Shown here in pieces: positions 729 through 32,695 of a DNA stretch of 64,000 nt (positions are counted from its first letter, which is position 1; every line of letters starts with the position of its first letter). The notes under the pieces are model-generated. The model was not told where the DNA came from, did no database searches, and saw nothing but the letters and a program-made list of their open reading frames with translations. Source of the DNA: Syntrophales bacterium (lineage in GTDB: Bacteria > Desulfobacterota > Syntrophia > Syntrophales > UBA2185); NCBI GenBank assembly GCA_035542475.1, contig DATKLL010000148.1, positions 14,810-78,809 of the forward strand. The letters are read 5' to 3'. A program made the position numbers and the translations under genes.

Positions 729-1931
729 TTACAGCTTGAGGCTGCCCACGCTCATGACCGTCTGGATGAGGGTAAGGACGATGAACCCCACCAGGAAGCC
801 CATAATGATGATGATGGCCGGCTCCAGAAGGGTCAGCGCACGCTTGACGCTGGTCTTGAACCTTTCGTCAAAGATCTGATAAATTTCGAAAAATATTTCC
901 TTCAAACTGCCGCTCTCCTCGCCGACGCGGATCATGTTAGGAATCATGGGCGGCAGAAAGGATACATGGGAAAAGGCATCGGCGATCTTCCGCCCTTCCC
1001 TGATTTGAACAGCCACCATTTCCAGACTCTCCCGGAGACTCCCATTTCGGATGAGGCCTGTCGAAAGGCGCAGGGCCTTGATGAATTCGACTCCCGCTTC
1101 CAGCATGGCGTGCATGGAATAGGAAAACCGGGACAACTCCAGGTTCAGGATGAGGGTGCGGGCCAGAGGCAGGCGGATAAGCCGGTCCTGCAGGACGGAG
1201 AACCGGACTTTTGCCGGATAGACCCTGCTCAGGATATAGAGGACGGAGAAAATCGACGCGACGATGAGCACGTTCTGCACACTCAGCCATTTACTGAGGG
1301 CAAACAGAAGCTTCGCCGCCGCCGGCAGGTTGTCCGCCGAGGCGCCGAAGATGCCCAGGAATCGGGGCACAATGAACTGAAAGATGACGAAGAAGGTCAT
1401 GATGCTCGCGACGATCAGAAAAGCCGGATAGACCATGGCGTCCCTGATTTCTCCCCGGAACTGGATCTGAAAGCGCAGATACTTGGCGATGCTTTCGAAA
1501 GCATCGGGCAGCCGTCCTATCTCCTCATTGTTGTGGATCATGTTGACGAGAAACTGACTGAACCGGCCCGTCTCCTGAAACGCCGCCGTGACGCTCTTTC
1601 CCGCCCGGATGTTGGTCAGTATGAAGGACAGGATTTCCTTCATTTCTTCCTTGTCCGCCGATTGGATCAGGATATCAACGGCCTTGTCGATCTGCATCCC
1701 CGATCGCAGGAGGGTGCTGAGTTCCCTGGCCATGTAGTAGGTGTCCTGGTGGTTGACCCGCCTTCTCCCGGCGAAGGTTTTTTCCCCACCCGCTTTTTCC
1801 GTGAGGTCGATGATGGTCAGTCCCCTCTCTTTCAGACGCGCCAGGGCATCCCTGCGGTCCGCGGCGGCGATTACGCCCCGTCCCTCCTTTCCAGTCTGAT
1901 CTATGCCGACATAGACAAAGTCGTTCAGCAA
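729..1931 (-). CDS. gspF: type II secretion system platform protein GspF (PilC family)
   Basis: 400-aa ORF (TTG start in the track) with two T2SSF-type repeats and three TM segments. Overlaps the gspE stop by 7 nt. Confidence 0.9.
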   Translation of the reverse strand: MLNDFVYVGIDQTGKEGRGVIAAADRRDALARLKERGLTIIDLTEKAGGEKTFAGRRRVNHQDTYYMARELSTLLRSGMQIDKAVDILIQSADKEEMKEILSFILTNIRAGKSVTAAFQETGRFSQFLVNMIHNNEEIGRLPDAFESIAKYLRFQIQFRGEIRDAMVYPAFLIVASIMTFFVIFQFIVPRFLGIFGASADNLPAAAKLLFALSKWLSVQNVLIVASIFSVLYILSRVYPAKVRFSVLQDRLIRLPLARTLILNLELSRFSYSMHAMLEAGVEFIKALRLSTGLIRNGSLRESLEMVAVQIREGRKIADAFSHVSFLPPMIPNMIRVGEESGSLKEIFFEIYQIFDERFKTSVKRALTLLEPAIIIIMGFLVGFIVLTLIQTVMSVGSLKL

Positions 1932-3598
1932 ACCCGGAGCACCTCCTCGATGGTGGTTAATCCTTTGATCACCTTGATCATGCCGTCCTCCCGGAGGAGG
2001 CGAAAACCGGGCCTGGCAGAGACCGATTGCCGGAAACCCTCGAGGGACAGTGTCTTCAGGAATACCTCCCTCAAATCATCCGTGTAATCGAAGAGTTCAA
2101 AGATGGCCGTCCGGCCCCGGTAACCGGTGCCGGCGCACTGCTGGCATCCCTCTCCCTTCATGTAGGCTGGGCCGTCGGGGATCAGTTCTTCGAAGCGTTT
2201 CATGATGCTGGAAACGCCGTATTCCTGAAGAAGATAAAGGGAAGGCGTTTCGGAACGGCTGCAGAACGGACAGTTCCGCCGGGCGATCCGCTGGGCCATG
2301 AGCCCCGTGACGGCGGCGTTGATGAGGTACCCCTCCACGCCCATCTCCATGAGGCGGAAGAGGCTGCTCGAGGCGTCGTTCGTATGGAGAGTTGAGAGAA
2401 CAAAGTGGCCTGTCAGGGCGGACTGGATGGATATCTCCGCCGTTTCCCGGTCCCGTATCTCCCCCACCATGATCACATCCGGGTCGTGGCGCAGGATGGA
2501 CCGCAGAGCCCCCGCAAACGTCAGGCCGATTTCGCTCTTTACCTGGATCTGATTGATCCCTGGAAGTTGATACTCTACGGGGTCCTCAGTGGTGATGATC
2601 TTCCTTTCCTCGCTGTTGAGCCGGGTCAGCATGGAATAGAGGGTGGTCGTTTTACCCGACCCTGTCGGGCCTGTGACCAGGAGCATGCCGTGGGGACGGC
2701 GGATCAGATCTGTGATCACGCGCCGATGATCCGCCTCCATGCCCAGATGCTCCAGATCGAAGCTGAGCTTTTCCCTGTAAAGGAGCCGCAGGACAACCCC
2801 CTCACCGGTGACGGTGGGAATCGTCGACACACGAATATCGAGAAGATGGGAGGCAAGCCGGGTGGAAAACTTGCCGTCCTGAGGAAGGCGCTTTTCCGCA
2901 ATATCCAGACCCGCCAGGAGCTTGACTCTTGACACCGCCGCCAGATAAAATTGTTCTTCGAGGACGTCCTTCTCGTGGAGGATGCCGTCGATCCTGAGTC
3001 TAACCCGGTAACGGTGCTCCGAAGACTCGATATGAATATCCGATGCCCGAAGCTCAACGGCCCGGCCAATGATATGATTGAGAAACTGGATGACCGGCGC
3101 TTCAAAGGCCATTTCCTTGAGCTTTTCCGCGTCCTGTTCGCCGTCGAGGGACACAAAGTCCTTGCCCATGTCACCCTTATAGCCCCGTACCAGTTCTTTG
3201 ACGGTTCCTTCTGGCGCCAGTACGGGGACAATCCTGAAGCCCGTCCGGCCGATGACGTAATCAAAAGTGCCATGCTGAAAAGGATCGTCTGTAGCGACGT
3301 AAAGAATGCGTCGCTCCCGGTCCGCTTTAAGAGGAAAAATCTGGTGGTTAAAGAGGAAGTTGAGATCCAGACGTTCTTCGAGGAACGGAAAGAGCTCGTC
3401 ATCCTGAAGCTCTTCGCCCTGATAAACGGTCAGATTCAAACCGGCGGCAAGCGCGTCGATGAGCTGCACCTCGGTGATGGCCCCCAACCGCAACAGGGCA
3501 CGGCCAATGTCTCCGCCGAGTTCTTTATGAAGTTTTTGGGCCTTCTCCAAAATCTCGGGCTTGATGGAAAAACGTTCTCTGAGGATCTGTTCGAGCAT
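1925..3598 (-). CDS. gspE: type II secretion ATPase GspE
   Basis: The track ORF extends to 3760, but its first 54 codons overlap gspG. ATG at 3598 lies 8 nt after the gspG stop and gives 557 aa starting MLEQILRERF. Has a GSPII_E N-domain, Walker A GPTGSGKTTT, and a C-terminal CPFC...CQQC tetracysteine motif. Confidence 0.9.
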   Translation of the reverse strand: MLEQILRERFSIKPEILEKAQKLHKELGGDIGRALLRLGAITEVQLIDALAAGLNLTVYQGEELQDDELFPFLEERLDLNFLFNHQIFPLKADRERRILYVATDDPFQHGTFDYVIGRTGFRIVPVLAPEGTVKELVRGYKGDMGKDFVSLDGEQDAEKLKEMAFEAPVIQFLNHIIGRAVELRASDIHIESSEHRYRVRLRIDGILHEKDVLEEQFYLAAVSRVKLLAGLDIAEKRLPQDGKFSTRLASHLLDIRVSTIPTVTGEGVVLRLLYREKLSFDLEHLGMEADHRRVITDLIRRPHGMLLVTGPTGSGKTTTLYSMLTRLNSEERKIITTEDPVEYQLPGINQIQVKSEIGLTFAGALRSILRHDPDVIMVGEIRDRETAEISIQSALTGHFVLSTLHTNDASSSLFRLMEMGVEGYLINAAVTGLMAQRIARRNCPFCSRSETPSLYLLQEYGVSSIMKRFEELIPDGPAYMKGEGCQQCAGTGYRGRTAIFELFDYTDDLREVFLKTLSLEGFRQSVSARPGFRLLREDGMIKVIKGLTTIEEVLRVC

Positions 3599-3606
3599 GG
3601 CTTTTT

Positions 3607-4005
3607 TCACCAGTTCGTTATGGATTTCCCCCCCAATGTTCCGTCCGGCCCAAGAGAGTACAGGTCGAAAGGCCCGTGCTCGCCGGGCGCCTTGTACCCG
3701 TAAGCTCTGTCCCAGGGGTCCTTCGGCACAACATTCTTGGAAAGGTAAGGCCCCCGCCACTTGAGATCTTTCGACTGGATTAATTCCTCCAGGTTCGCGG
3801 GATAGCGGTTCATGTCGAGCTTGAAGGACATGACGCTCGACGAGAGCATTTCGATCTGCGCCTTGGCAATTTCTTCCTTGGACCGCTCGAAGCGGCCCAT
3901 CAGGTTCGGCGCGATGAGAGAGGCGATAAAGCCGATGATGATTACCACGACCAGAATTTCGATCAGTGTGAATCCGGCATCTTTTTTTCGCTTTTTATTT
4001 TTCAT
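3607..4005 (-). CDS. gspG: major pseudopilin GspG
   Basis: Prepilin leader plus GFTLIEILVVVIIIG, and a C-terminus DPWDRAYGYKAPGEHGPFDLYSLGPDG typical of GspG. ATG at 4005 is preceded by AGGAG. The track ORF starts at 4035, inside the gspD 3' end. Confidence 0.85.
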   Translation of the reverse strand: MKNKKRKKDAGFTLIEILVVVIIIGFIASLIAPNLMGRFERSKEEIAKAQIEMLSSSVMSFKLDMNRYPANLEELIQSKDLKWRGPYLSKNVVPKDPWDRAYGYKAPGEHGPFDLYSLGPDGTLGGKSITNW

Positions 4006-4019
4006 GACACGCGCTCCTG

Positions 4020-6182
4020 CTAAAATTTCATCCATTTAAGTTCTTTCTTCAGTTCATCCGTAATCTTCGTGGCATCATCCGTTTTCGTTAGGATCGTCGG
4101 AGTTACCAAGACGAGCAACTCCGTCCTTTCCGTTGTATTTTCTGTGACCTTGAAAAGATTGCCGATCACAGGTATATCGCCCAGGAAGGGTATCTTGCTC
4201 TCTTTAACCGCCTTCCGCTCTCTCATCAGACCGCCCAATGCCACCGTTTGTCCATGAGCTGCGACTACGGATGTATTGATCCGGCGTATGAGAATGATTG
4301 GAGAATCGCTGATCCCGGTTGTCGGCGATAAATCCGAAACCTCCTGGGTCAGTTCCAGGGTGAGCAGACCTTCGGTATTGATCGTCGGTTTCACCCGCAG
4401 GATGATTCCGAGGCTCCGATACTGGATGGACCTCTGGATAGTTGGGTTTTCGGTAGTAGAGGAGGCCGTGGTCTGCTCGCCCGTGGCAATGGGTACATCT
4501 TGGCCTATCTGGATGATCGCCTCATGGTTGTCGAGAACGGTCAGACGAGGGGTCGAGAGAATGTTGGCCTTGTCTTTCGTCGCCAAGGCATTCAACATTG
4601 CCTTGAAATTCGCCGTGGCCGTGGCATAGCTGAAAGTCATTCCCAGGGTGTTGATGCCGAGGTTTCCGAGGGTTCCTCCCGTAATCGGACCGCCGTTAAT
4701 GGTATTATTGATATACCACTCTACGCCGTATTTCAGTTCATCCGTGAGACTGAGTTCGGCTACGGTCGCTTCGATGAGGACCTGCTTTGTCTGAGTGTCA
4801 AGCTGGCGGAGGATCTCGAGGTGTTGCCTGTAAACGGTGGGCGAACATATCATGATTACCACATTCTTATTGTTGTCAGCGGCGATTTTCAGGTTGGGCA
4901 GGGCGGCTGCGCTGAAGGCCGCACCGGAAGAAGCTGTCTTTCCTGAGGCCGCCTGAGTGATTGAGCCCCCAAATGTGGTCGACGTCTGGGCGTCGGCGAC
5001 CGGCGTCTGGAAACCCTGGCCCGTTGTCTGGTATCCGGTAGATGATGCCGAAGCTGGACGCGAGGATGCGTCTCTGCCCGGAGCAACTGTATCGGAACGG
5101 GGCGTTATGCCGTAAAGCGCCAGCACAGAATTGACAATGTCCGAAGCCCGTGAAAACTGCGGCGCAAATGTGTAGGCCTTTTCATCCGAGCCTGCCGCTT
5201 CCACTGTATCAAGTCTGTTTTTCCAATCGATGACATATTTCATGGTTGCCTCATCCGGGGCGATGACGAGGACGGCATTCATCTGCCGGATGGCTACAAA
5301 CATGGGACCAGGATCTTTCGGCGTCTTCGCCGCGGCGATCCCCATCCCTTCCAGCATTCTTGTCAATTGACTTATAAACTCTTCCGGCTGCCAGTAAATG
5401 AGACGGAGAAACACAACTTTCTTCTCATGGAGGGAAGGAACATCGAAGAAGTTTATGAAATCTATTATCTGTTGAATATTGTTGCTGCTGCCATGAAGAA
5501 TTAGAACGTTCTCCCGAGCGTAGGGTTTGATCTGGACACTTCCTCTCGACAGATCGGTGATCAGAGATTGAATCTCCGACACTCGCAGGAACCTGAGGGG
5601 AACAATTTGCAGGACATCGCCTCTTCTTTCGACTATTTCACGACCGGTCTGAATATCCGACGTTGGTCTTGGAGCAGGGGGTTTCTGCATGACATGAAGC
5701 GCGCCCGCTTTTTCTTCGACGATAAGGTCATGTTTTTCCAGGACGCCGACAACCATCTCCAGGGCCTTGTCCGCGGGGACAGGCTGAGGCGTGGACAGCG
5801 TGACAACCCGCTTGTCTTCCATCATGGCCTGATCCATGACGAAGGGGATCTTCATGGTTTCACCAATGACATAGATCACGAATTCCGGCAGTCGCATACG
5901 ATTCACATTGATCGATACGGGGCCTTCCGCCGCCTTCAGTTTCTGCACACTCAACGGCTGTCTTGGAGAAGGCGGGCGCGCAGGCGCTTTCTGATCGTAA
6001 GAAAGCGTTTTGACTGTCTCAGCGAGGGCTGCCTTGTCCTGCTCATTCGACGCCTCAGTGCCTTCCACAGACTTTTGTCTATGTTCAATCGTTATGGGCT
6101 TGTACACATAAGGGGCAGGTGCGCAACCGGGAAGCATCAGAAAGATAATTATCCATAGACTGTTAAGAACGTATCTTCTCAT
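4020..6182 (-). CDS. gspD: secretin GspD, predicted lipoprotein form
   Basis: 720 aa. Signal peptide with lipobox LMLPGC (Cys20), N0/N1-like domains, a 70-aa S/T/A/G-rich linker, and a secretin core (VLIEATVAELSLTDELKYGVEWY ... IPFLGDIPVIGNLFK). Confidence 0.9.
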   Translation of the reverse strand: MRRYVLNSLWIIIFLMLPGCAPAPYVYKPITIEHRQKSVEGTEASNEQDKAALAETVKTLSYDQKAPARPPSPRQPLSVQKLKAAEGPVSINVNRMRLPEFVIYVIGETMKIPFVMDQAMMEDKRVVTLSTPQPVPADKALEMVVGVLEKHDLIVEEKAGALHVMQKPPAPRPTSDIQTGREIVERRGDVLQIVPLRFLRVSEIQSLITDLSRGSVQIKPYARENVLILHGSSNNIQQIIDFINFFDVPSLHEKKVVFLRLIYWQPEEFISQLTRMLEGMGIAAAKTPKDPGPMFVAIRQMNAVLVIAPDEATMKYVIDWKNRLDTVEAAGSDEKAYTFAPQFSRASDIVNSVLALYGITPRSDTVAPGRDASSRPASASSTGYQTTGQGFQTPVADAQTSTTFGGSITQAASGKTASSGAAFSAAALPNLKIAADNNKNVVIMICSPTVYRQHLEILRQLDTQTKQVLIEATVAELSLTDELKYGVEWYINNTINGGPITGGTLGNLGINTLGMTFSYATATANFKAMLNALATKDKANILSTPRLTVLDNHEAIIQIGQDVPIATGEQTTASSTTENPTIQRSIQYRSLGIILRVKPTINTEGLLTLELTQEVSDLSPTTGISDSPIILIRRINTSVVAAHGQTVALGGLMRERKAVKESKIPFLGDIPVIGNLFKVTENTTERTELLVLVTPTILTKTDDATKITDELKKELKWMKF

Positions 6183-6413: not shown

Positions 6414-7022
6414 TTAATAACCTTTTAGCTTTGAGTAGTAATTCAAAACCTGTTTCACGTAATTTCTTGTTTCTCGGATTGCCGGAATCTCTTTCTTTTC
6501 AATGACTTTTTCCAGTCCGGCGTTGTAGGCGGCGAGGCTCAAAGGAAGATTGCCTTTAAGGGCATCGAGAAGCCTGCTCAGATACATGACGCCGCCGTGG
6601 ATGTTCGAAGCCGGCTCAAAGGGATCAACAACGCCCAGTTCTCTGGCAGTTTGCGGCATGAGCTGCATCAAACCCAAAGCCCCTTTAGGAGAAACGGCGC
6701 GGTTGTTGAAGTTCGATTCGACTTTGATTACAGCGCGTACGAGGTCAGGATCTACAGAGTATGTTGTACTTGCCTGAAGGATCAGCGATTCGTAGTCGCG
6801 CAATCTCAGACCAGCAGATAGAACCGGCGCGGAAGATCCGCCTTTCTTCGTCACCAATGGAAAGTGGACCTTTGTGCATCCTGGACCTGGTGTGTTTGTA
6901 TAATATCTTGTCCCATCTTCATCATGGAAGGAATAGACATCGGCGGCAAGAACCGGAAACGGGACCATGAACAGCCAGAGCGAGAAGGCGAGTGTCAGCA
7001 GCCGCGAGGCAAAGGTTATCAT
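6414..7022 (-). CDS. soluble lytic transglycosylase (SLT domain) protein with signal peptide
   Basis: Motif VIKVESNFNNRAVSPKGALGLMQLMPQTA ... AAYNAG with an N-terminal signal peptide. Start overlaps the upstream gene stop (ATGA). Confidence 0.85.
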   Translation of the reverse strand: MITFASRLLTLAFSLWLFMVPFPVLAADVYSFHDEDGTRYYTNTPGPGCTKVHFPLVTKKGGSSAPVLSAGLRLRDYESLILQASTTYSVDPDLVRAVIKVESNFNNRAVSPKGALGLMQLMPQTARELGVVDPFEPASNIHGGVMYLSRLLDALKGNLPLSLAAYNAGLEKVIEKKEIPAIRETRNYVKQVLNYYSKLKGY

Positions 7023-7861
7023 TGGCCGCCTCCCTGAGCATTATCATCCGCTTTTGTAATCGGGGGATAGGGTCTCCTCCGTCCGGGCTTAGAGGGTGGA
7101 GGTGCTGAATCCTTCGGCAGCGCTTGAACAGTCTGAAGCGGGGCTTCTGGAAACGCTTGAGCATAGAGTGTCAAATCTTTTTCATCCTTACCGTTTCTTA
7201 ATCTTACGGAACGGGAATCGATACGGGCAATAACTGAACCATCCGGCAGAGACTGGCTTGTCTCCAGAATGGTCAGGTTGCCGACGTCATCTTTAAATAC
7301 AGCCTTTTTGTGAACGCCTCCCAGAATGCCGATAAGTAAAGGGTTCCCGCCTGAAAGATTCTTCATCTCAACCTGCCCGGATGCGGGTGACGTGGGTGAA
7401 ATGGAAGATCCATAAACATTAAATGCCTTCTTCTCATTTCCTCTCTTGAGCATTACTTGCTTGCTGCTCACAGCGGCAATTCGGAATCCATCAATCATTC
7501 GGTCTCCTGTAGCACCATTCTTGACAGAGCCCGTGTATTCACGGAAGATAGCCTTCATCCCGGCTTTTTCCTGGACAATGCCGATAAGGCTATAAGGATT
7601 ATCGGGCATGGGGGTCTGTACGTAATCTTTATCATTATAACTGCCCGATGCAGCAAAAATGTTTCTCTCTCCGATGGCCGTCCCCTCGCTCTTTCGCCCG
7701 ACTTCCATCGATTTCACCTCCGGCGGCGCCTTTGCGTCTGCCGACACCGGCGCCGGAACGGGCACGGGCTCCTGCATATCCTTTGGCATCCCCGCCAGAA
7801 AAAAAGCGATAACGGCTGCCATAACGATAAAAACCATATCGGGAAGATAGCGACTAATCAT
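7019..7861 (-). CDS. GspC/PilP-like inner-membrane secretin-interacting protein (tandem HR/PilP-like modules)
   Basis: N-terminal TM, a Pro-rich linker and an ERNIF motif. Two similar beta-rich modules follow: YSLIGIVQEKAGMKAIFREYTG...FRIAAVSSKQVMLKRGNEKKAFNV and NPLLIGILGGVHKKAVFKDDVG...VIARIDSRSVRLRNGKDEKDLTL. Position lies between the gspM-like gene and the secretin. Confidence 0.5.
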   Translation of the reverse strand: MISRYLPDMVFIVMAAVIAFFLAGMPKDMQEPVPVPAPVSADAKAPPEVKSMEVGRKSEGTAIGERNIFAASGSYNDKDYVQTPMPDNPYSLIGIVQEKAGMKAIFREYTGSVKNGATGDRMIDGFRIAAVSSKQVMLKRGNEKKAFNVYGSSISPTSPASGQVEMKNLSGGNPLLIGILGGVHKKAVFKDDVGNLTILETSQSLPDGSVIARIDSRSVRLRNGKDEKDLTLYAQAFPEAPLQTVQALPKDSAPPPSKPGRRRPYPPITKADDNAQGGGQ

Positions 7862-8403
7862 AGTTCCATCCGGAAGGCGCTTACCGTCATGGAAAAAGTC
7901 ATCCCCTGGCCGCTTACGGAAATCTCCATGGCCTTGACCGCGAGGGTCTTTTTATTTTCCTTCATGCTTTTCAACAACTCGACGAAAGATCGGGCACTGC
8001 CCGCAAGTCTGAGCACAACGGGCACTTCACTGATCTTCTTGCCGATGGCCGCTTCCGGCATTTCGAATCCCAGGACGGTCAGACCCTTGTCTTCCGAGTA
8101 TTTCAAGATGGTAGCCAGCATTTCTGACTGGATATCAGAGACACGGGCCTCCCGCGGATACAGGGCGGTACGCGCCTTATCGAGGTCTTGCGTGACCCCC
8201 GCACTTTGTGCCTGCTGCGCCTGCTCGAGAATCCGGGCTTTCAGCATGTAAGTCTCCTGCTGAAGAGCAAGATGAGCCCGTCTATCATTGACTGCCGCAT
8301 GAAGCGGATAAATGAGGAACCGCAAGAGCGCAAGGATGAGGATAATATATACACCAATGGTTTTCACCCAGTTATTGCTGTCGATCGCGAATAATCCCTT
8401 CAT
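7858..8403 (-). CDS. GspM/PilO-like bitopic membrane protein
   Basis: 181 aa with one N-terminal TM (IGVYIILILALLRFLIYPL), a coiled-coil and a C-terminal alpha/beta domain. Translationally coupled on both sides. Assigned by architecture and position only. Confidence 0.5.
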   Translation of the reverse strand: MKGLFAIDSNNWVKTIGVYIILILALLRFLIYPLHAAVNDRRAHLALQQETYMLKARILEQAQQAQSAGVTQDLDKARTALYPREARVSDIQSEMLATILKYSEDKGLTVLGFEMPEAAIGKKISEVPVVLRLAGSARSFVELLKSMKENKKTLAVKAMEISVSGQGMTFSMTVSAFRMEL

Positions 8404-9650: not shown

Positions 9651-10524
9651 CTATCGTTAGACCCGCGCTGATTTTATAAAGGCTGCGGGGACTGCCGGTG
9701 CGAACGATAATATCCATATAGTATGACGGCGCAAACCATCCCTTCTGTTTCTCCAGATAAAGCATCTTGCCCGTTAACGCGACAAGTTCCGGCATGGCTC
9801 TTATTGTCTTTCTTGCGACATAGTCCCTTATCTTCGCCACCTTGCTGTCATCGATATTAAGAAATGCCTTCAAGACGGAATCACCGGCCGTATTTGGATT
9901 AAAGCCCGTGGTCGGCAGGATCGTCACCGCAGAAGCCAGTCGACTGAAAAGATCGGCGTCAACGCCCCTTATGAGTTTCATCTCTTCCAGGTACTGAAGA
10001 TCATATTTACGGGGCGTATAGGGAAACCCGTGGTTTCTGTAATATGGCGCCTTGGCCCCGTTTACTCGGGCCATATCACCCTGGCTGATCCAGTCCAGAA
10101 AGCTATCCGTAAATATAGCGCCCCGCTCGGAGTCTGTTTCATTGGTGACAAGCCTTTGCAGGGCCTCCTGGTTTCGCGCTGTGAGAGACAGGCGTCCGTT
10201 GCTGTCCTGAGCCATTACAAAGACGCCGTCAGAGATCATCACTTCCGATCCGTCAAGGGGTATGGATTTCAGATCAGTAATATCACTCTGCGCAATCACT
10301 ATTCCATTCTCCGTAATTTGCCCTGTAAGCATGATGTAGATAAGTGTGTCATAGGCTGAACGGGTCTTGATGATGGCCTCGGCCTTGTCACGCAGCCCCT
10401 CTGAGGTTCTTATATGCTCTTTGACCAGCCAGTTGAAACCCAGGCCAATGGCAAGAATCACCGCCGCCAGAAGCGCGATCAGAATGGTCACGGAGCCTCG
10501 CTCATTGCTCGTATAGTTTTTCAT
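9601..10524 (-). CDS. gspK: minor pseudopilin GspK
   Basis: 307 aa with an N-terminal hydrophobic segment (GSVTILIALLAAVILAIGLG). The C-terminal region LIRGVDADLFSRLASAVTILPTTGFNPNTA matches the GspK SAM-like/HhH pattern. Confidence 0.7.
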   Translation of the reverse strand: MKNYTSNERGSVTILIALLAAVILAIGLGFNWLVKEHIRTSEGLRDKAEAIIKTRSAYDTLIYIMLTGQITENGIVIAQSDITDLKSIPLDGSEVMISDGVFVMAQDSNGRLSLTARNQEALQRLVTNETDSERGAIFTDSFLDWISQGDMARVNGAKAPYYRNHGFPYTPRKYDLQYLEEMKLIRGVDADLFSRLASAVTILPTTGFNPNTAGDSVLKAFLNIDDSKVAKIRDYVARKTIRAMPELVALTGKMLYLEKQKGWFAPSYYMDIIVRTGSPRSLYKISAGLTIGEGTFYPYFIHYWQEE

Positions 10525-11242
10525 AGCCTCGCTTCCACTGAGAATTCACATGCATTGCGTACATGAACATTCTGTTTTCACCACCTCGCGTGTAGTCGAC
10601 TCGAACCAGCAGGGGGAGCTGTTTTGTCTCAGCTCCTTCAAATATACTCCGCCATTTATGCTTTTCATCTCGAACATCATAACCGTAAAATTCGAATTGA
10701 ACCCTGTCAGCACCTTCGAGGATTTTGACGGATTGACCTTTCCGATAGGCGCCCGACGCAAGGTCTTCCTTGAGATCTTCGAACGACTTGGCGTAAACGG
10801 GGAGTTCATAATAAACCAGACTTATTTTCCCATCTGCCGTCACTTCTTTTCTCATCCAGACGACGACGGGGAGATCCCCGGCAAAAGGCGCCAGAGTCAC
10901 AAACGAGATCCCCTCCTGATTTCCTCTGAAATAAGGAAACCAGCCCTGTGCGCTCGTATTCACATAATAATCAATGGTTGAATGAAAACTCTTATCTGTC
11001 CAGATTTTCTGAGCGTAATCCCAGAAACAGAGCCCTTTATCAACAAGTCCCTGGTATTGCATCAACCCCTGATTCAAGGCCATTCCCCCTAATAGGAGCA
11101 TTGCTGAAAAAATGGCCATGGCCACAACGACCTCTATCAGGCTGTAACCAGGAGCGGTGCGTCTCTCACCTCCATGATAACGGCCGTGAACGAAAGACAT
11201 GGATATGATACTCCCTGATCGACTTTTTAAATTCCAAGACAA
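10502..11242 (-). CDS. minor pseudopilin, GspJ-like
   Basis: Prepilin-type N-terminal methylation motif PGYSLIEVVVAMAIFSAMLLLGG. Size and position fit GspJ. The real start is probably an internal ATG (about 11200). Confidence 0.6.
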   Translation of the reverse strand: MSWNLKSRSGSIISMSFVHGRYHGGERRTAPGYSLIEVVVAMAIFSAMLLLGGMALNQGLMQYQGLVDKGLCFWDYAQKIWTDKSFHSTIDYYVNTSAQGWFPYFRGNQEGISFVTLAPFAGDLPVVVWMRKEVTADGKISLVYYELPVYAKSFEDLKEDLASGAYRKGQSVKILEGADRVQFEFYGYDVRDEKHKWRSIFEGAETKQLPLLVRVDYTRGGENRMFMYAMHVNSQWKRGYEKLYEQ

Positions 11243-11597
11243 AATCGACTCGATATAGAAATAGATCGTGTGAGAGATTTCTTCTGACCATTACCCCGCT
11301 TGCAGAAGCAGTCCCTGACCGGTCCCGATTATTCTGAGCAAGAAGGTGCGATACCCATTTCATAATCACGCCATCTCCCATGTCTTCCGTTCCAGATTGT
11401 CTTTCCAGCTCTATGATCTTCAGGAGACTTCCTGCCTGCAAAAGCTTTGCGGACAGGAGATTGACCTGGTTCACTCTCTCCATGTGGTTGAATCCCACTC
11501 TGAAAAGATACATGGCGGCTGCGATGCTTGCTGTCAGGATGAGGCCGGCAATCAATACCTCCAGGACGAGAAATCCCCGCGAATCGTCTCCTCTCAT
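11166..11597 (-). CDS. minor pseudopilin, GspI-like
   Basis: N-terminus RGFLVLEVLIAGLILTASIAAAMYLF, a degenerate prepilin motif with conserved Glu. 143 aa, and position fits GspI. Confidence 0.55.
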   Translation of the reverse strand: MRGDDSRGFLVLEVLIAGLILTASIAAAMYLFRVGFNHMERVNQVNLLSAKLLQAGSLLKIIELERQSGTEDMGDGVIMKWVSHLLAQNNRDRSGTASASGVMVRRNLSHDLFLYRVDFVLEFKKSIREYHIHVFRSRPLSWR

Positions 11598-11995
11598 GTC
11601 CCTCTTCTTTCAAGGGAAAGATCACCCAGCGGGGCTTTAACCACAAGGTGCTGGACCACGTCGTCCACGCTCAATACAATTATGCCCCCGGACGATGTTC
11701 CATTCGGAAAAAAAACGATGGACTCAGAGAGATGGACATTTATCCCGCCGAATATTTTCTTTCCCCCATCGACTGTCATATTACCGTCCTGCGATGAAAT
11801 AACCTTCCTTTCACTGTAAAGGAAAGCGTCCCGCCTCAATTCGGAAACGTAAGCCATGACCTCCTGCACGCGCAGAGAGGAATTGTACGTAGCATACATG
11901 CCGTATGAAACCGGCAGGGCAACCGACAACACCATCCCCACGAGAATGACAACAATGAGGAGCTCGATGACTGTGAATCCTCTTTTTTTACACAT
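11594..11995 (-). CDS. minor pseudopilin, GspH-like
   Basis: MCKKRGFTVIELLIVVILVGMVLSVALP is a classical prepilin cleavage/methylation motif. First gene of the operon, with a GGAGAG RBS about 12 nt upstream. Confidence 0.7.
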   Translation of the reverse strand: MCKKRGFTVIELLIVVILVGMVLSVALPVSYGMYATYNSSLRVQEVMAYVSELRRDAFLYSERKVISSQDGNMTVDGGKKIFGGINVHLSESIVFFPNGTSSGGIIVLSVDDVVQHLVVKAPLGDLSLERRGT

Positions 11996-12322: not shown

Positions 12323-12438
12323 TTAGTGATAACATGCCAATATTATGCAAGTTATTGCATAATTTTCTGAAGGCGGGCAAGGACATCTCCCGGCACAGGA
12401 GGAATAAGAACATGAGGCGAGCGGCAGATTCTCTGATC

Positions 12439-14952
12439 TTATTTTTTCTCTAATCGGTTTCGCCGCATTCCAAATACCGCTACCGCAGCCAGGGCCGGCA
12501 CCAGCACCAAAAACCCCACATAACTGAGGGCAGGAACAGGCGAGGATGTCGAGGCATTGATGGCGGCTTCGAGGTTGATACGTGTTTTGCCGTAGTTGAT
12601 CTTGACATCCGTCAAAGGATCCCCCGTGCTGACGAGAATCGACCGCACATCAGCCGGTGTAAGAAAATAACCCAACTTTTCCTTCGCAGCATTTTGCAGT
12701 ATAGCAGCGGCGCCCGCCGCATAGGGAGAAGCCGCCGAAGTGCCGCCAAAATTGCTCACGTAAGAACCCCCTTTAGCGGTCGTATAGGCCATGTGCGACG
12801 GCGCTAAAAGCCCGAGAATCGGCGCTGTGTTGGAATAGGGCGTTTCCCGGTCCGGTGTAATCGAGTAAGACCAGGCAACTGGATTTGGACTGCAAGAGGC
12901 ATGCGTCCCCTGATTGGGCGCACAGGATGATGGATCCACGCAAAACCCCAGAGTCCCCAGAGACGCATCAAAAACAGCCCCCACAGCGATCACATGCGAT
13001 ATGCAGGATGGCCAGGCGATTGCATTACAATAGCCGTTATTTCCCGAAGACACAAAAATCGTAATGCCCGCGGCGACGGCATTGGCGGCAGCTGAGGTCA
13101 TGGCGGTGGAGTAGCTGTCGCAGGCCGTTGTGAACTGTCCGCTTCCCATGCTCGTGTTAATGACCATGATCGGATAATTCGGATTGTCATTCTGGTGCGT
13201 GATGCACCACTCCCAACCCGCAATAATGTCCGAAGTATAGGCCTCCCCGGTCGAGCCGTGAGTGACTTTGACGGCATAGAGTTTCGCGCCGTAGGCCACC
13301 CCGCCGATATAATCACCCGTCGTACCCGTATCGCCCGCAGCGATGCCCGCACAGCTTGTGCCGTGGCCGTTTACGTCCATCGGATCAGCATCCTGGACAG
13401 CGGGGTTGTTATACTCCCCGCCAAAGTCGTAGCCGCCAAGCACCTTGGCGCTAAGCTTCGGGTGCGTGTAGTCGATGCCCGTATCCACAATGGCTATGGC
13501 CACGCCCTGGCCGTTGTAAGTGCCGCGAACGGCAGAGGCATCAATCAGCGGGATCCCCTGGGCGGTGTGAATCTGAAGCTTACGATCCAATTCAATGGAG
13601 AAGACGTCGCCATGTTGGCGCAGATCTTCAAGTCCTCCACGGGTCACCTCAGCGGCAAATCCGGCGTGGTAATCAAAAAAGTTCGTGACTTTTACCCGGT
13701 TTGCGTTTAACCCCATTAAAACCCGTTGCTGTATCCACCTGACATTTTGCCGGCGCGTCACCCTGCCCTCCGGCCGTTTCATGTCCTCCCGTCCGGGATC
13801 CGCCAGGTTCACGATAACATAGGTCGTGGCCCGGCTGCTATTAAAGCCGCGAAGGATGCCCGCCTCGTCAATGAGCCGCGCCTGGGCACAGACCGGCAGG
13901 GGCCGGCCAAGCGCAAGGATTCCGAGGAATAAAAGTAAAACCATACAGAGTATCGCAGGGCGCACCTTTGCAAAACGAATATTCATCAAGCGCCATCGGA
14001 TCGACAGCCCCCCTCCCAAGGTGAGCCAAAGAACGAGCGGTATAAGCGATTGCGCTGTGAGGTGGACCGCTGTCGCCACCGGGAGAAAATCCATCAATCC
14101 GTATCCGACAACAATGACATTGAAGACGCGAAGAACAAGATGCAGCGCCGCTAAAATAACCGTTCCGATGAGCAGCGCTCTGGTTTTTGACATTCGTGTC
14201 ATGCCGTCGTCGGCAAGAACAAGTGCGCCAAAGACTACAAGGTTGACGGTGTGGTAATAGATTTCATGGTGATGGGCAAATATAATTTTGGCCCCGAAAA
14301 TTGAAAAAATGAAACTCAGCAATGCATCACTGGAGATAATATAGCCCTGATTGAGCGGAATCCAGATGATAAAGAGGGTACTCGACGCAACAGCAAATCC
14401 GACGACAAATCTTCCGATCGCGCCAGGCTTTTTTGTCTTGTCGCAGAAGCGGACCCAGACATGGCAGGTGACCAGTACAATCAAAATCGTCCAGATCTGA
14501 CCGATGTAGGCATGAAAATAATTGAACCATGACGGTACGGCCGAGCCGAGGGCGATGGTCAAGCCCAGGCGGAGAGTATTGGCCGCGGTGAGAAAAAGCA
14601 TACCGGCGAGCAGACCTTGAATTCTGTCCGCAGGCGTCGCCGGAAAAGAAAAGAGAAAAACCGCAAAAATAAGGATCATGAAAACCGGTGTGCATTCCGG
14701 GACGATCCATACGGATAATCCGTCTGCAAAAAGATATTCCCCCCTGGCAACGATTGGCATACCGAAAACACCGAGCAGCAGACTTGTGAGTTTGGCTGTC
14801 AGTCGATTGACCGGCGCGTAAACGGGGTCGGGAAGCAGACTTGCCGCAACATAAAAGACAAGAGCGTTAAGTGAAAATCGGAAGAGAAGGCGCCTGTAAC
14901 CCGTACGCTGAGTTTCAACTTTTCCTTCTCGGGACACAACCATCACCTCCAT
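12439..14952 (-). CDS. fusion protein: exosortase/archaeosortase-like membrane domain + I9 propeptide + S8 subtilisin-like protease + PEP-CTERM-like C-terminal sorting signal
   Basis: 837-aa ORF. Exosortase signature residues are in context: Cys87 (WIVPECTPVF), Arg128 (AANTLRLGL), His147 (NYFHAYIGQ). There are about 9 TM segments up to residue 320. Residues 323-356 read as an internal signal-peptide-like segment, MNIRFAKVRPAILCMVLLLFLGILALGRPLPVCAQA. The S8 triad is AIVDTGIDY / NGHGTSCAG / GGTSAASPYAAG. The tail is SSPVPALSYVGFLVLVPALAAVAVFGMRRNRLEKK. Confidence 0.8.
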   Translation of the reverse strand: MEVMVVSREGKVETQRTGYRRLLFRFSLNALVFYVAASLLPDPVYAPVNRLTAKLTSLLLGVFGMPIVARGEYLFADGLSVWIVPECTPVFMILIFAVFLFSFPATPADRIQGLLAGMLFLTAANTLRLGLTIALGSAVPSWFNYFHAYIGQIWTILIVLVTCHVWVRFCDKTKKPGAIGRFVVGFAVASSTLFIIWIPLNQGYIISSDALLSFIFSIFGAKIIFAHHHEIYYHTVNLVVFGALVLADDGMTRMSKTRALLIGTVILAALHLVLRVFNVIVVGYGLMDFLPVATAVHLTAQSLIPLVLWLTLGGGLSIRWRLMNIRFAKVRPAILCMVLLLFLGILALGRPLPVCAQARLIDEAGILRGFNSSRATTYVIVNLADPGREDMKRPEGRVTRRQNVRWIQQRVLMGLNANRVKVTNFFDYHAGFAAEVTRGGLEDLRQHGDVFSIELDRKLQIHTAQGIPLIDASAVRGTYNGQGVAIAIVDTGIDYTHPKLSAKVLGGYDFGGEYNNPAVQDADPMDVNGHGTSCAGIAAGDTGTTGDYIGGVAYGAKLYAVKVTHGSTGEAYTSDIIAGWEWCITHQNDNPNYPIMVINTSMGSGQFTTACDSYSTAMTSAAANAVAAGITIFVSSGNNGYCNAIAWPSCISHVIAVGAVFDASLGTLGFCVDPSSCAPNQGTHASCSPNPVAWSYSITPDRETPYSNTAPILGLLAPSHMAYTTAKGGSYVSNFGGTSAASPYAAGAAAILQNAAKEKLGYFLTPADVRSILVSTGDPLTDVKINYGKTRINLEAAINASTSSPVPALSYVGFLVLVPALAAVAVFGMRRNRLEKK

Positions 14953-15075
14953 TTATGGTTTGTTCTTTTTGTGATATACTTTTTTCAGTCACCGACTTAA
15001 TATCACCGGCAATAATATGCCTGAAACACATTTTTCCAGTTCCGCATGCATCATCATATCCATAAGACGCAGGTT

Positions 15076-15126
15076 CATAAAAAAACCCAAACCGATCAAT
15101 TATATTCCTTTGATCGATCCGGGTTT
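15076..15126 (-). terminator. intrinsic terminator between the gspH' remnant and the exosortase-subtilase gene
   Basis: Minus strand reads AAACCCGGAUCGAUCAA-loop-UUGAUCGGUUUGGGUUU, a 17-bp stem with 3 G-U pairs, followed by UUUUUAU. Confidence 0.55.
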
Positions 15127-15160
15127 TCTGATTCCAAATATATGGTCAGCAAAATGCCCG

Positions 15161-15322
15161 TCAATGACTGGAAACGTAAGCCATGACTTCCGGCGCGCGC
15201 ATAGGGGCATTGCACGTGGCATACATGCCGTATAAGACCGGTAGGTCAACCGACAACACAATCCCCACGAGAACGACGACAATGAGGAGCTTGATTACTG
15301 TGAATCCTCTTTTTTTACACAT
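15161..15322 (-). pseudogene. truncated gspH paralogue (first ~50 codons only), part of repeat copy B
   Basis: MCKKRGFTVIKLLIVVVLVGIVLSVDLPVLYGMYATCNAPMRAPEVMAYVSSH* compared with GspH MCKKRGFTVIELLIVVILVGMVLSVALPVSYGMYATYNSSLRVQEVMAYVSEL... The RBS-containing 41 bp of copy A is missing. Confidence 0.75.
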
Positions 15323-15537
15323 GCAATTCACGATGATTAGGCACGAAATCGGAACCGTAGATCTCTGTGTATGTTCAATGGAAGCGCCGGAGGCAGAGTT
15401 TTCGAAACCTGAGATTTGTTGGAACAAGCACCGTTATCCATGTTAATTCTTCGTCGGTCAGGCATTTCCGTTATACCAGCGCGTTTATAAACATCTTCTG
15501 TTGTGTTGTTATGACAAAATAATGATGTTTTTGTTAA
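15170..15537. repeat. direct repeat copy B (see 11843..12322)
   Basis: Same orientation as copy A. The two copies flank 12323..15169. Confidence 0.85.
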
Positions 15538-15771
15538 CGAATAATATTGCCTTGATATCAGGTACTTATTCCGTTGATAAAGAGGTGCTTACCGTTGCGG
15601 TGATTTAACACCGAGAGGAGGAAACCGTCGTGCATCCTGTATCAACCACGTTTTGAGCAAGCTTCACAAAATGTTCACATGATTTTAATCTGAATAAAAC
15701 AATTGTGATATAAGAAAGCTAGCTTCAAGGAGCGCCGAAATTTTTTGTAATTGAAACCGAGGAGGAGGCTG

Positions 15772-16554
15772 ATGATGAAAAAGATGCTCTGCGTTATGGT
15801 GTGGGTAGTGATGATTTGCTGCGCAGGAACGGCTATTGCCGGGACAGACGTTGAAAAGATTTTGAAAACAACATTCCCCGATTTTGCATTCGATTCTGTA
15901 TCTCCGTCGCCGGTAAAAGGGATCTATGAAGTAGTAGGGGGGAAGAGAATATTCTACTTTGCACCGCAAGAAGGCATCCTCATCCTGGGACAGATGTTCG
16001 ACAAAACAAAGCGGAATCTGACCGCTGAACGGATGAAAGAGATATCGGCCAAGGCCGATGAGCAGATGGCCGAGATGGCCAAGGACTTACCTCTCGATAA
16101 AGCAATCAAGACCGGTAACGGACCGCACGTAGTGATAGAGTTCACCGATCCCGACTGCCCTTACTGCCGCAGGGCGGCACAGTTCTTTGAGTCTCGGACT
16201 GATGTGACCAAATACACCTTCTTCACTGCCCTCCCAATGCACCCGGATGCCAAGAACAAGGTGCGTTATATACTCTGTCAGAAGGAGAGAAGCAAGGCAT
16301 TCGAAGAGGTGATGAAAGGCAAAATCGATGGCGGCAAGTATGAGACCTGCACAAACGCTGAAGTCGAAGACCTGATCAAGCTTCATGAGTCCGCGGCTGC
16401 AAAGCTTGGCGTCTCAGGGACGCCATTCTTCATCATTTACGGCAGACCGGTTTCCGGCGCCGATATCCCAAAACTCGAAAGTCTGCTGGGCGAGAAAGTC
16501 ATCAACGGTAAAGAGGATAAACCTGTCAATCCCACTGTGCCGCAAGCCAGATAA
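15772..16554 (+). CDS. DsbC/DsbG-family periplasmic thiol:disulfide interchange protein
   Basis: Signal peptide MMKKMLCVMVWVVMICCAGTAIAG and thioredoxin-fold active site FTDPDCPYCRRA. GGAGGAGG RBS before ATG 15772 (track ORF starts at 15751). Confidence 0.8.
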   Translation: MMKKMLCVMVWVVMICCAGTAIAGTDVEKILKTTFPDFAFDSVSPSPVKGIYEVVGGKRIFYFAPQEGILILGQMFDKTKRNLTAERMKEISAKADEQMAEMAKDLPLDKAIKTGNGPHVVIEFTDPDCPYCRRAAQFFESRTDVTKYTFFTALPMHPDAKNKVRYILCQKERSKAFEEVMKGKIDGGKYETCTNAEVEDLIKLHESAAAKLGVSGTPFFIIYGRPVSGADIPKLESLLGEKVINGKEDKPVNPTVPQAR

Positions 16555-16687
16555 GTGGTAGGCGTTGGGAACACTATGATTCAGTAAGGTCCTGATGTAC
16601 ACGAACGCATGAGAAAGGTTTAGAGTGAAAGATCGAAGTACAGTGTACTACGGCAGATCCGTTGCTAAAAGCAAAAGAGAGAAAGTT

Positions 16688-16736
16688 GTCATACTGAGCC
16701 CGTCGAAGTGTGGTCACACTCCGACAAGCTCAGTAT
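16688..16736. repeat. REP-like long hairpin between convergent genes (possible bidirectional terminator)
   Basis: ATACTGAGC-CCGTCGAAGTGTG-GTC-ACACTCCGACAA-GCTCAGTAT is near-perfect dyad symmetry. Lies between the dsbC-like stop (16554) and the lectin stop (16753). Confidence 0.5.
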
Positions 16737-16752
16737 AACAGTAACATAACGA

Positions 16753-17361
16753 TTAAGATACTCTCCCTTTGACCACCCGAACCCCCCCTAACATGGCCAA
16801 TCCAGACCCCAAGAGCCACACCACGCCCGGAATTGGAACTACTGGATTAGGAGGATTATTTTCTCCCATTTCCCTTTCTACTAAAAAACCCGAGATGTTC
16901 CTAAGGTTTCCCTCGTCATTCCACATCCAGGCGTGCTTCCTATATTTGCTCCATATGGCAAGGTGTTGTTCCGAATCGTGGCCATAATAATCGTTAGGTT
17001 CCCCCTTCGACCATCTGTGATAATTCCAGGGTTCATTTGTCGCCCAATGCCATTTGTTCGATCCATCCTGATACCCACCGATCCAGAACTCGCCGTTAAC
17101 CCCCTGCAGTAATTTTTGTACATATCTCTGTTCCGTCTTGCTTGTAATGGTGGCGAGATGGTAAGAGCTGCCCCAACTCGCGACTTCCGCTGCTGCATCG
17201 TCCCAGGACACGCCCTTTTTAAACACGAGAATGTACTCATTGTCGCCGGAGAATGTGGAATCGGCCAGGGGACCGACGGTCATGCAGGCGACACTCTGAG
17301 CCGCTACTGCGCAACAAATGATAATGACCAGAACGATTGTGACGATTACTTTCTTTTTCAT
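16753..17361 (-). CDS. secreted C-type lectin domain protein with PEP-CTERM-like (PIP variant) C-terminal anchor
   Basis: Signal peptide MKKKVIVTIVLVIIICCAVAAQSVA. CTLD hallmarks are WIGGYQDG...WHWATNEPWNYHRWSKGEPNDYYG...WMWNDEGN (EPN and WND motifs). The tail is NPVVPIPGVVWLLGSGLAMLGGVRVVKGRVS. Confidence 0.75.
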   Translation of the reverse strand: MKKKVIVTIVLVIIICCAVAAQSVACMTVGPLADSTFSGDNEYILVFKKGVSWDDAAAEVASWGSSYHLATITSKTEQRYVQKLLQGVNGEFWIGGYQDGSNKWHWATNEPWNYHRWSKGEPNDYYGHDSEQHLAIWSKYRKHAWMWNDEGNLRNISGFLVEREMGENNPPNPVVPIPGVVWLLGSGLAMLGGVRVVKGRVS

Positions 17362-32693: not shown

Positions 32694-32695
32694 TT

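Follow-up and report, generated by a model that had tools for sequence, protein, structure and literature searches.

A putative dedicated exosortase system with an exosortase–subtilase fusion at the head of a type II secretion operon in a Syntrophales bacterium

Exosortases were identified through comparative genomics, and several other sorting systems with C-terminal signals are linked to type II secretion systems (T2SS). The processed proteins of GlyGly-CTERM and MYXO-CTERM systems pass through the outer membrane by way of the T2SS, and Synerg-CTERM co-occurs with the T2SS (PMC11980579; bioRxiv 10.1101/2023.06.07.544157). In this study, a 64,000-nucleotide stretch from a Syntrophales bacterium (contig DATKLL010000148.1; hereafter the window) was analysed, in which a gene for an exosortase fused to a subtilisin-like protease of the S8 family lies beside genes for a DsbC-family disulfide isomerase, a C-type lectin and a T2SS operon. 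An earlier reading of the same sequence (the original prediction) had proposed that these genes form one integrated surface-protein sorting module, in which the exosortase and the T2SS are functionally coupled. Comparison with related loci suggests that the conserved unit is probably a small dedicated exosortase system, which comprises the enzyme, a protease with a C-terminal sorting tail, DsbC and the lectin as a probable client, and that the adjacent T2SS is not part of it.

The closest described system is XrtH (TIGR04177) with the sorting signals IPTL-CTERM (TIGR04174) and midcut-by-XrtH (NF033207), and XrtH was the best-scoring exosortase type for the window enzyme and for all relatives tested (70–86 bits). 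XrtA systems typically have dozens of clients, encoded at scattered sites in the genome. A fusion of an exosortase with a protease-type domain has a named precedent in exosortase E/protease, VPEID-CTERM (TIGR04162); the domain joined to XrtE is of the intramembrane CPBP type and is not a client. To our knowledge, the exosortase cleavage site, the acceptor and the outer-membrane route have not been established.

The exosortase–subtilase fusion, DsbC and the lectin

The fusion gene lies on the minus strand (12439..14952) and encodes 837 aa, and orthologues of 824–827 aa come from independent assemblies. The exosortase–protease fusion of the original prediction was confirmed, with both TIGR04178 (37.2 bits vs 23) and Pfam Peptidase_S8 (138.8 bits) matching this one open reading frame (ORF). 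The exosortase domain (aa 1–331; 13960..14952, minus strand) belongs to the exosortase/archaeosortase superfamily by signature and by residues, and Pfam PF09721 is precomputed on its orthologues. All 40 aligned subfamily sequences share residues E86, C87 (codon 14692–14694), R128 and H147. Against the XrtH model, the domain scored 70.4 bits and stayed below the cut-off of 86, and XrtH is still the best-scoring named type. The enzyme is described here as an XrtH-like exosortase of ~330 aa, a member of the family with a predicted catalytic role. A profile comparison using hhalign aligned aa 15–172 with aa 176–315 (probability 87.5%, E 3.6e-6), and the second half is without the catalytic-Cys loop; this half looks like a diverged repeat of the first, a tentative reading because membrane helices are biased in composition. 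A profile of the exosortase family matched no solved structure. In an AF2 model built on a 63-sequence alignment, pLDDT was above 90 over most of aa 20–320 and 56–73 in the tail helix, and parts of the S8 domain were much less confident than the exosortase domain.

A signal-peptide-like helix follows the exosortase domain (aa 330–355; 13888..13965, minus strand; hydropathy peak 2.54) and ends in VCA/QA. The loop before this helix contains four K/R and no D/E, and an AxA site was found after the internal signal peptide in every fusion orthologue read (ACA/QA, ASA/QA). A weak I9-like propeptide lies between the signal helix and the S8 catalytic domain (aa 481–779; 12616..13512, minus strand). 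This domain is a subtilase with the S8 triad present, namely, Asp490 (DTG), His530 (HGT) and Ser739 (GTSAA). Eight Cys occur between residues 534 and 687 and are conserved in unfused homologues, in agreement with the original count of at least eight Cys in the C-terminal half of the subtilase. The C-terminal sorting tail (aa 803–837; 12442..12546, minus strand) is composed of VPALSYVG (12514–12537), a transmembrane (TM) helix and RRNRLEKK. The architecture looks like an in-frame junction of an exosortase gene with an entire pre-pro-subtilase gene, signal peptide and sorting signal included, and the predicted order in the Smithella-type fusion is exosortase, internal signal peptide, I9-like propeptide, S8 domain and sorting tail.

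The DsbC-family disulfide isomerase is encoded on the plus strand (15751..16554), and its gene is divergent from the fusion gene in the window and co-directional in relatives. Matches to DsbC_N (56.9 bits) and Thioredoxin_2 (52.3 bits), together with CPYC at residues 136–139 (codons 16156–16167), place the protein among DsbC/DsbG-domain proteins with a thioredoxin fold, and the periplasmic disulfide isomerase first proposed is indeed present. The E. coli DsbC equivalog model gave 57 bits vs 215.

The lectin gene (16753..17361, minus strand) encodes 202 aa with a signal peptide and the tail VPIPGVVWLLGSGL...VRVVKGR (16756–16854). The protein is a C-type lectin by Lectin_C (27.8 bits vs 22.6), by matches to C-type lectin structures in the PDB (E 4e-9) and by the motifs EPN121 and WND147. 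Its only Cys are residues 16, 17 and 26 in the signal-peptide region; no Cys follows residue 26, and the canonical disulfide Cys are absent. The lectin family is small, with 14 proteins at E ≤ 1e-3 among 5.8 billion.

The tails of the two window proteins were compared with curated models. For the protease tail, the best NCBIfam matches were midcut-by-XrtH (20.2 bits) and IPTL-CTERM (16.9 bits; cut-off 20.5), both sub-threshold; the corresponding tail at a distant locus (L023) reached 20.2 bits against IPTL-CTERM. The lectin tail best matched the PEP-CTERM and VPLPA-CTERM families, again sub-threshold, and gave no IPTL-CTERM match; with 14.1 bits against VPLPA-CTERM (cut-off 25.35) and no TIGR02595 match, it falls outside both families. 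By curated models, the two tails belong to different signal classes. The original prediction had described two secreted Cys-rich proteins with matching CTERM-like tails. Both proteins are tailed and the protease has its eight Cys, but the lectin domain has none and the tail motifs differ. The accompanying argument that C-type lectin-like domains need disulfides does not hold for a domain without any Cys, and the idea that a Cys-rich lectin needs DsbC was rejected for the same reason.

Distribution of the exosortase cassette and the T2SS operon

Relatives are designated by L-numbers for genomic loci and P-numbers for homologous proteins, and the view of each locus was limited to ±10 kb. Scans of species-representative genomes and metagenomes yielded 29 non-Smithella loci with 27–34% identity over 300-plus residues, including Geobacter argillaceus, a Geoanaerobacter, a Syntrophobacter, several Nitrospirota and deltaproteobacterial metagenome-assembled genomes (MAGs); the wider metagenome scan gave only 14 loci. 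Approximately 190 cluster representatives, nearly all 300–370 aa long, were found by an exhaustive HMMER search at E ≤ 1e-10, and subfamily relatives scored 74.7–85.8 bits against XrtH (cut-off 86).

A protein with [VTG]PAL[GS]xx(G/W), a helix and a basic cluster is encoded in 18 of the 29 loci, 13 of which have its gene abutting or overlapping that of the exosortase. Clan-SB proteases formed the largest group among the tailed proteins scanned. Tailed pro-kumamolisin/S53 sedolisins were found at L014, L022 and L027 (L097 encodes a near-identical protein that was not scanned), tailed S8 subtilases at L016, L087, L099 and L084, tailed 5'-nucleotidase/CBM96/MBG proteins at L016, L023 and L088, and tailed InlB-repeat proteins at L015, L020 and L095; the L095 tail is without the PAL motif and stands outside the 18 loci counted. 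The typical client would be a secreted clan-SB serine protease with [VT]PAL[GS]xxG, a TM helix and a basic cluster, similar to IPTL-CTERM; its pairing with the enzyme is observed in these loci, and its cleavage is predicted.

Exosortase and client are fused in a second lineage, in which P0041 (944 aa) and P0055 (915 aa) are composed of exosortase, signal peptide, S8 domain and DUF11, with the tails VPALSPWG and VPALSGLG. These two proteins are 44% identical, and their S8 domains share 29% identity with the window S8, which is ~50% identical to subtilases that are not fused. At least two separate origins of the fusion are therefore probable, because the S8 of the second lineage is more distant from that of the window than unfused S8 domains are. 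No T2SS was found on the contigs beside P0041 and P0055; the P0041 contig is 5.7 kb, and L084 shows 1.4 kb upstream. An unfused arrangement is seen at L087, where a 114-kb contig carries dsbC immediately before the genes for a 392-aa exosortase and a tailed S8-DUF11 protein, with no T2SS within 10 kb. DsbC also lies within the Nitrospirota cassette of L027, L096 and L097, and an FKBP-thioredoxin protein is encoded in Geobacter-type loci.

A T2SS-like operon beside the exosortase was absent from the available sequence of 28 of the 29 loci. Only L019 (1–7181; a Nitrospirota MAG) has one, where an XrtH-like gene lies head-to-head with a gspG-E-F-H-I-J-K operon of a more distant subtype and an alkaline phosphatase gene lies downstream. 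By a rough estimate, chance overlap of a 20-kb span with a T2SS- or type IV pilus-like operon is expected in 0.3–0.9 of 29 loci, and a strict head-to-head arrangement in 0.02–0.06. L019 is therefore treated as a lead and not as a result. In this neighbourhood test (1 of 29 distant loci), the sorting enzyme and its tag did not co-occur with the T2SS across lineages.

Lectin homologues indicate that the family is a repeat exosortase client. The lectin of L099/L100 (45% identity) ends in a VPIPP (VPIP-type) tail, and its gene is separated by 2.3 kb from an XrtH-like gene (74.7 bits), which is divergently paired with a gene for a 489-aa S8 protein ending in VAVPAFSGYGLWG…RKQSRSK; no T2SS is present there within ±10 kb. 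At L101, a 39%-identical lectin (P0196) has a true PEP-CTERM tail (TIGR02595, 24.1 bits vs 16) and is encoded directly upstream of XrtA, EpsI and PrsT. The lectin homologue of L102/L103 precedes a GspE/MshE-like ATPase at the end of the contigs. VPIP-type tails occur 0.2–8.7 kb from XrtH-like genes in 11 of the 29 loci and are the sole tail type seen at L012, L013 and L090. Across these three context types, the lectin tail appears to vary with the neighbouring exosortase, VPEP beside XrtA and VPIP beside XrtH-like enzymes, and the window lectin is plausibly a second client of the fused exosortase. The L102/L103 pair was not counted as T2SS linkage, as its ATPase shares only 37% identity with GspE of the window and no sequence follows on the contigs. 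The lectin homologue at L102 (3447–6022) and L103 is of PEP-CTERM type, and the adjoining ATPase carries a c-di-GMP-binding N-terminal motif.

Within the Smithella clade, only five full-length fusion clusters were found among 5.8 billion proteins, namely, that of the window and four at 73–76% identity with Smithella/JGI annotations. Besides the window protein, three distinct intact fusions come from independent assemblies (P0002, P0004 and P0005; L001, L002–L005 and L006). On the contigs of these relatives, dsbC, the fusion gene and gspH…gspF are all co-directional. Standalone matches to the N-terminal domain (53–64% identity) represent decayed forms of the fusion in this position: the exosortase of L007 is intact, with S8 remnants only, and is followed by the T2SS, and L008/L009 and L010/L011 (Smithella M82) have truncated exosortase genes. 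The dsbC gene is frameshifted in L002–L005 (L002 5913–6658), four assemblies from different samples, beside an intact fusion.

Five Smithella genomes keep the T2SS and are without the fusion (L029, L030, L031, L032 and L033). No dsbC, exosortase or S8 gene was found in the 8.5 kb upstream of the operon at L029, L030, L032 and L033, and dsbC directly precedes gspH at L031 (Smithella SCADC). A scan anchored on GspK returned 56 loci, and no exosortase, S8 or DsbC is encoded upstream of the orthologous T2SS operons of other Syntrophales, Nitrospirota, Thermodesulfobacteriota and relatives (more than 40 loci). Because these operons lack the cassette and five Smithella genomes lack the fusion, the T2SS is taken to be older than the cassette, far more widespread and independent of it. 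Judged from these gene orders, the cassette is accessory and in many cases missing or broken. The order outside the Smithella clade is gspG-E-F-H-I-J-K-L-M-C-(SLT)-D, and the Smithella order, in which G-E-F follow D, is derived (window 729–11995 vs L035–L075). The G-E-F block moved in the same lineage that acquired the cassette at the operon head.

Several further observations concern the cassettes. At L001, a gene for a 400-aa TPR protein (12818–14020) separates the fusion gene from gspH, and the operon head thus appears to tolerate insertions. A protein of 336–393 aa without a Pfam or NCBIfam match adjoins dsbC at L002 (4469–5650, minus strand), L006, L007, L008, L011 and L031; a homologue (37% identity) adjoins the tailed S8 at L099/L100 (L099 15935–17101, minus strand), and none is present in the window. 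Eight Geobacter and Nitrospirota loci (L012–L014, L016, L022, L027, L096 and L097; for example, L014 11893–19944) share a cassette beside the XrtH-like gene, which encodes a ~250-aa protein with a VPIP/PEP-CTERM-like tail and PBP-like (~430 aa), FKBP-like (~300 aa) and uncharacterised (~400 aa) proteins. A 530–580-aa BamA/Omp85-like barrel is encoded in this cassette at L012–L014, with a cut-off match at L016, and the partner in the outer membrane at such loci could be of Omp85 type instead of a T2SS. Nine members of 640–690 aa (P0065, P0071, P0090, P0091, P0103, P0110, P0121, P0132 and P0138) join the exosortase domain and an internal signal peptide to a ~300-aa periplasmic region with no Pfam match and no C-terminal sorting tail, which is a different kind of fusion. 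A radical-SAM protein (L087 14828–15961; Pfam Radical_SAM, 61.5 bits) is encoded a few kb from the exosortase–protease pair, and an ORF at L022 (2615–3784) has a similar Cys-rich C-terminus as seen by eye.

The T2SS operon of the window consists of twelve contiguous minus-strand genes (729–11995) in the order gspH-I-J-K-L-M-C, SLT lytic transglycosylase, gspD-G-E-F. The first gene encodes a GspH-like pseudopilin (11594..11995; prepilin domain, 24.9 bits vs 16.3; N-terminus GFTVIE), followed by a GspI-like protein named by position (11166..11597; no family match, synteny only), a GspJ-like pseudopilin (10502..11242; prepilin N-terminal domain, 20.4 bits vs 16.3) and the minor pseudopilin GspK, a weak match (9601..10524; NF037980, 56 bits; Pfam T2SSK_1st on orthologues). 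GspL is named by position only (8400..9650; no family match, orthologous by synteny in at least 40 loci), GspM is weak (7858..8403; NF040576, 30.4 bits; weak PilO and T2SSM_b matches), and the delta-type GspC matched weakly (7019..7861; NF041515, 38.8 bits, below cut-off) in a conserved position. The SLT-domain lytic transglycosylase (6414..7022; Pfam SLT, 99.9 bits) keeps its place in Smithella loci and in 10 more distant T2SS operons, and no match was found there in other complete operons. The remaining genes encode the secretin GspD (4020..6182; TIGR02517, 350.3 bits vs cut-off 351.35; Pfam Secretin and Secretin_N), the major pseudopilin GspG (3607..4035; TIGR01710, 122.9 bits vs cut-off 88.85), GspE with an MshEN-type N-terminus (ORF 1925..3760; TIGR02533, 521 bits; Pfam T2SSE, 425 bits; MshEN, 32 bits) and GspF (729..1931, 400 aa; TIGR02120, 278 bits, cut-off 424; Pfam T2SSF twice). 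The true start of gspE is probably near 3610 because its orthologues are 557–561 aa long. Only GspG passed its equivalog cut-off; GspD was one bit short, and GspE and GspF are clear family members below theirs. A secretin, ATPase, platform, major pseudopilin, minor pseudopilins H–K and GspC/L/M are therefore represented. The "full T2SS" of the original prediction stands as a 12-gene operon but is not full, since neither a prepilin peptidase (GspO/PilD) nor GspN was found in or flanking it, the remaining ORFs of the 64-kb window having been listed and not family-scanned. A prepilin peptidase may be encoded elsewhere in the genome. The ORF after gspF is PMT_2 glycosyltransferase-like.

A duplication of the gspH upstream region was also found. 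Positions 11843–12331, which hold the T2SS upstream region and the 5' end of gspH, match 15170–15546 in three blocks of 84–91% identity with two deletions in the upstream copy, over ~380–490 nt, both on the minus strand. An extended -10-like motif occurs in each copy, TGGTATAAT at 12255–12263 and TGGTATAAC at 15470–15478; the former was recognised by eye only, and sites in a sigma-70 promoter scan were no more numerous than in shuffled sequence. A truncated gspH' remnant (15161..15322, minus strand) runs for 53 codons to a stop, reads GFTVIK (Glu5 to Lys) and is 78% identical to gspH by tblastn. A terminator-like hairpin with a U run (15082..15127, minus strand; dG -28.7 kcal/mol, z -4.0) lies between the duplicated copy and the fusion gene, and a homologous element follows dsbC in relatives. 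A second copy of the duplication was found in none of the 15 Smithella-clade loci searched. The most plausible view of the duplication is a scar from local rearrangement, in which dsbC was inverted here, and not a shared regulatory device, because relatives have a single gspH copy and co-directional dsbC. The duplication on which the original prediction based a promoter and leader shared by the exosortase gene and the T2SS is real; a shared promoter was ruled out, as the upstream copy occurs in this genome alone and the terminator hairpin after it separates it from the fusion. A riboswitch or leader RNA in the duplicated region was likewise rejected, since an Rfam E-value scan of 11500–18500 gave three chance-level matches and none in the leader.

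Elsewhere in the window, a PPK2-family ADP-polyphosphate phosphotransferase (20247–21137; 502 bits vs 450) lies near a block of minus-strand genes (22997–29694). The stretch 30000–36600 has a G+C content of ~0.40 (0.45–0.56 elsewhere) and contains many short ORFs, as well as an ORF (35492–36592) that looks integrase-like at its N-terminus. This stretch may be a mobile-element remnant.

Proposed mechanism and alternative explanations

A mechanism can be proposed for the dedicated exosortase system. The polytopic N-terminal domain of the fusion would insert into the inner membrane, and the internal signal-anchor helix would export the pro-subtilase to the periplasm. Signal peptidase I at the conserved AxA, or autoprocessing of the propeptide, would free the N-terminus of the protease and leave it held by the C-terminal helix alone. 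DsbC and the general Dsb system would set approximately four disulfides in the eight-Cys catalytic domain. The exosortase Cys87 would then cleave at VPALSYVG and pass the protease to an acceptor, by analogy with ArtA and PEP-CTERM systems. The lectin, which is of mannose type by EPN and WND and has a VPIP-type tail, would be a second client. The T2SS would be a conserved and separately evolving operon, at the head of which the cassette lodged in one lineage, and the duplication of the gspH promoter and 5' end would have been left by the event that also inverted dsbC.

The linkage of exosortase, tailed protease, DsbC and lectin put forward originally was upheld by the PAL tails in 18 of 29 loci (13 abutting), by DsbC at L087, L027, L096 and L097 and by the lectin at L099/L100. 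Several points weigh against a dedicated system that excludes the T2SS. Predictions from sequence underlie the proposed cleavage, acceptor, processing by signal peptidase and use of DsbC, and the protease and lectin tails both fall below curated sorting-signal cut-offs. Frequent decay of the fusion (L007, L008–L011) and the broken dsbC of L002–L005 indicate that the parts are not strictly co-dependent, and no lectin homologue was found near the fusion within the ±10 kb neighbourhoods of the other Smithella loci. Every Smithella-type fusion copy, intact or decayed, with a visible downstream flank sits at the T2SS operon head, and the exosortase of L019, an unrelated Nitrospirota locus, is head-to-head with a T2SS-like operon. 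A T2SS encoded elsewhere in the distant genomes, beyond the ±10 kb viewed, could still serve.

The last of these points lead to the integrated module of the original prediction, in which the whole 17 kb would act together and the T2SS would be the outer-membrane exit for exosortase clients, like GlyGly-CTERM/rhombosortase and MYXO-CTERM/myxosortase; we consider it unlikely. It would explain why the order dsbC–fusion–T2SS is kept in all fusion-bearing Smithella loci with a visible flank, down to 53% exosortase identity (L007), and the divergent XrtH-like gene and gspG-E-F-H-I-J-K of L019 supply one independent head-to-head case. VesB of V. cholerae is likewise a serine protease with a C-terminal tag, and the T2SS is required for GlyGly-CTERM and MYXO-CTERM (PMC11980579; bioRxiv 10.1101/2023.06.07.544157). 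The synteny, however, does not extend the T2SS adjacency beyond the clade, and the adjacency in Smithella is most simply one inherited insertion, which counts as a single observation. Orthologous T2SS operons occur in more than 40 loci without exosortase, S8 or DsbC upstream, five Smithella genomes retain the T2SS without the fusion, and the available sequence of 28 of the 29 distant loci, of the second fusion lineage and of the unfused loci that join DsbC or the lectin to exosortase and S8 contains no T2SS. The duplicated promoter, moreover, is genome-specific and separated from the fusion by the terminator. Tail-bearing proteins accompany the exosortase without regard to whether a T2SS adjoins it, an outcome that the original prediction had named beforehand as speaking against itself, and the proposed functional coupling was not supported. 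It is quite improbable that the Smithella T2SS is the exit for the exosortase-processed subtilase, and perhaps the lectin, which would make this the first exosortase system wired to a T2SS and L019 a second instance. The T2SS is a reasonable outer-membrane exit candidate by analogy with GlyGly-CTERM and MYXO-CTERM, with no neighbourhood support beyond one clade.

The place of the lectin within the dedicated system depends on its tail and its neighbours. It is possible, though on balance doubtful, that the lectin is an ordinary PEP-CTERM protein of an XrtA-type exosortase encoded elsewhere and lies here by chance or rearrangement. Its tail matches PEP-CTERM/VPLPA-CTERM families and not IPTL-CTERM, other Smithella loci have no lectin near the fusion, and the L101 homologue with a true PEP-CTERM tail adjoins XrtA, EpsI and PrsT. 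This is countered by the VPIP tails near XrtH-like genes in 11 of 29 loci (the sole type in L012, L013 and L090), by the 45%-identical VPIP-tailed lectin of L099/L100 with an XrtH-like gene 2.3 kb away and a tailed S8, and by the small size of the family, 14 proteins among 5.8 billion. As regards the cassette itself, the S8 remnants of L007, the truncated exosortases of L008–L011, the frameshifted dsbC of L002–L005 and the rearranged window locus would fit a decaying relic without present function in this genome. Such a relic is very improbable, given an intact 837-aa frame with the catalytic residues of both domains, signal peptide, eight Cys and tail, intact dsbC and lectin genes in the window, and three intact fusion proteins (P0002, P0004 and P0005; 74–77% identity) from independent assemblies.

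Comparison with known systems

The subfamily represents a minimal system, in which one or two dedicated clients are encoded adjacent to a single enzyme. Enzyme and presumed client are made as one polypeptide at a fixed 1:1 ratio in at least two lineages, which makes the enzyme–substrate pairing explicit, and mass spectrometry of the expressed fusion could reveal where it is cleaved and which moiety is attached. The subfamily has a cultured carrier in Geobacter argillaceus (ATCC BAA-1139), at whose locus, L013, a protein with a VPIP-type tail is the only tailed one seen. A fusion of an exosortase to a client with a retained signal peptide was found in no curated family and in no paper in our literature search, and no literature on exosortase–T2SS coupling was found, as judged by titles and abstracts.

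The likeness to XrtH and IPTL-CTERM lies in the enzyme type and in the tail, as VPALSYVG of the window aligns with IPTLxxWG and its two best matches are the XrtH-cognate signal models. The subfamily differs from XrtH in that all scores are below 86 and in its length, 300–370 aa against a 158-position model, which is due to the repeat-like second membrane half; in addition, the window enzyme is fused to its presumed client, and the tails are below the IPTL-CTERM cut-off.

The locus resembles rhombosortase/GlyGly-CTERM (V. cholerae VesB) and myxosortase/MYXO-CTERM in having a secreted serine protease with a tripartite tag, a polytopic membrane enzyme and an adjoining T2SS operon. Those enzymes are of rhomboid and CPBP type and are unrelated to exosortase, whereas the T2SS adjacency of the window subfamily is confined mainly to one clade. 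With XrtA/PEP-CTERM/EpsI/PrsT systems, the locus shares the enzyme superfamily, the window lectin tail resembles PEP-CTERM, and the L101 homologue is bona fide PEP-CTERM. Unlike in XrtA systems, no EpsI, PrsT or exopolysaccharide genes lie beside the window exosortase, which is of the short XrtH type with one or two adjacent clients. In contrast to the partner domain of XrtE, the partner of the window exosortase is a soluble pre-pro-subtilase with its own signal peptide and sorting tail.

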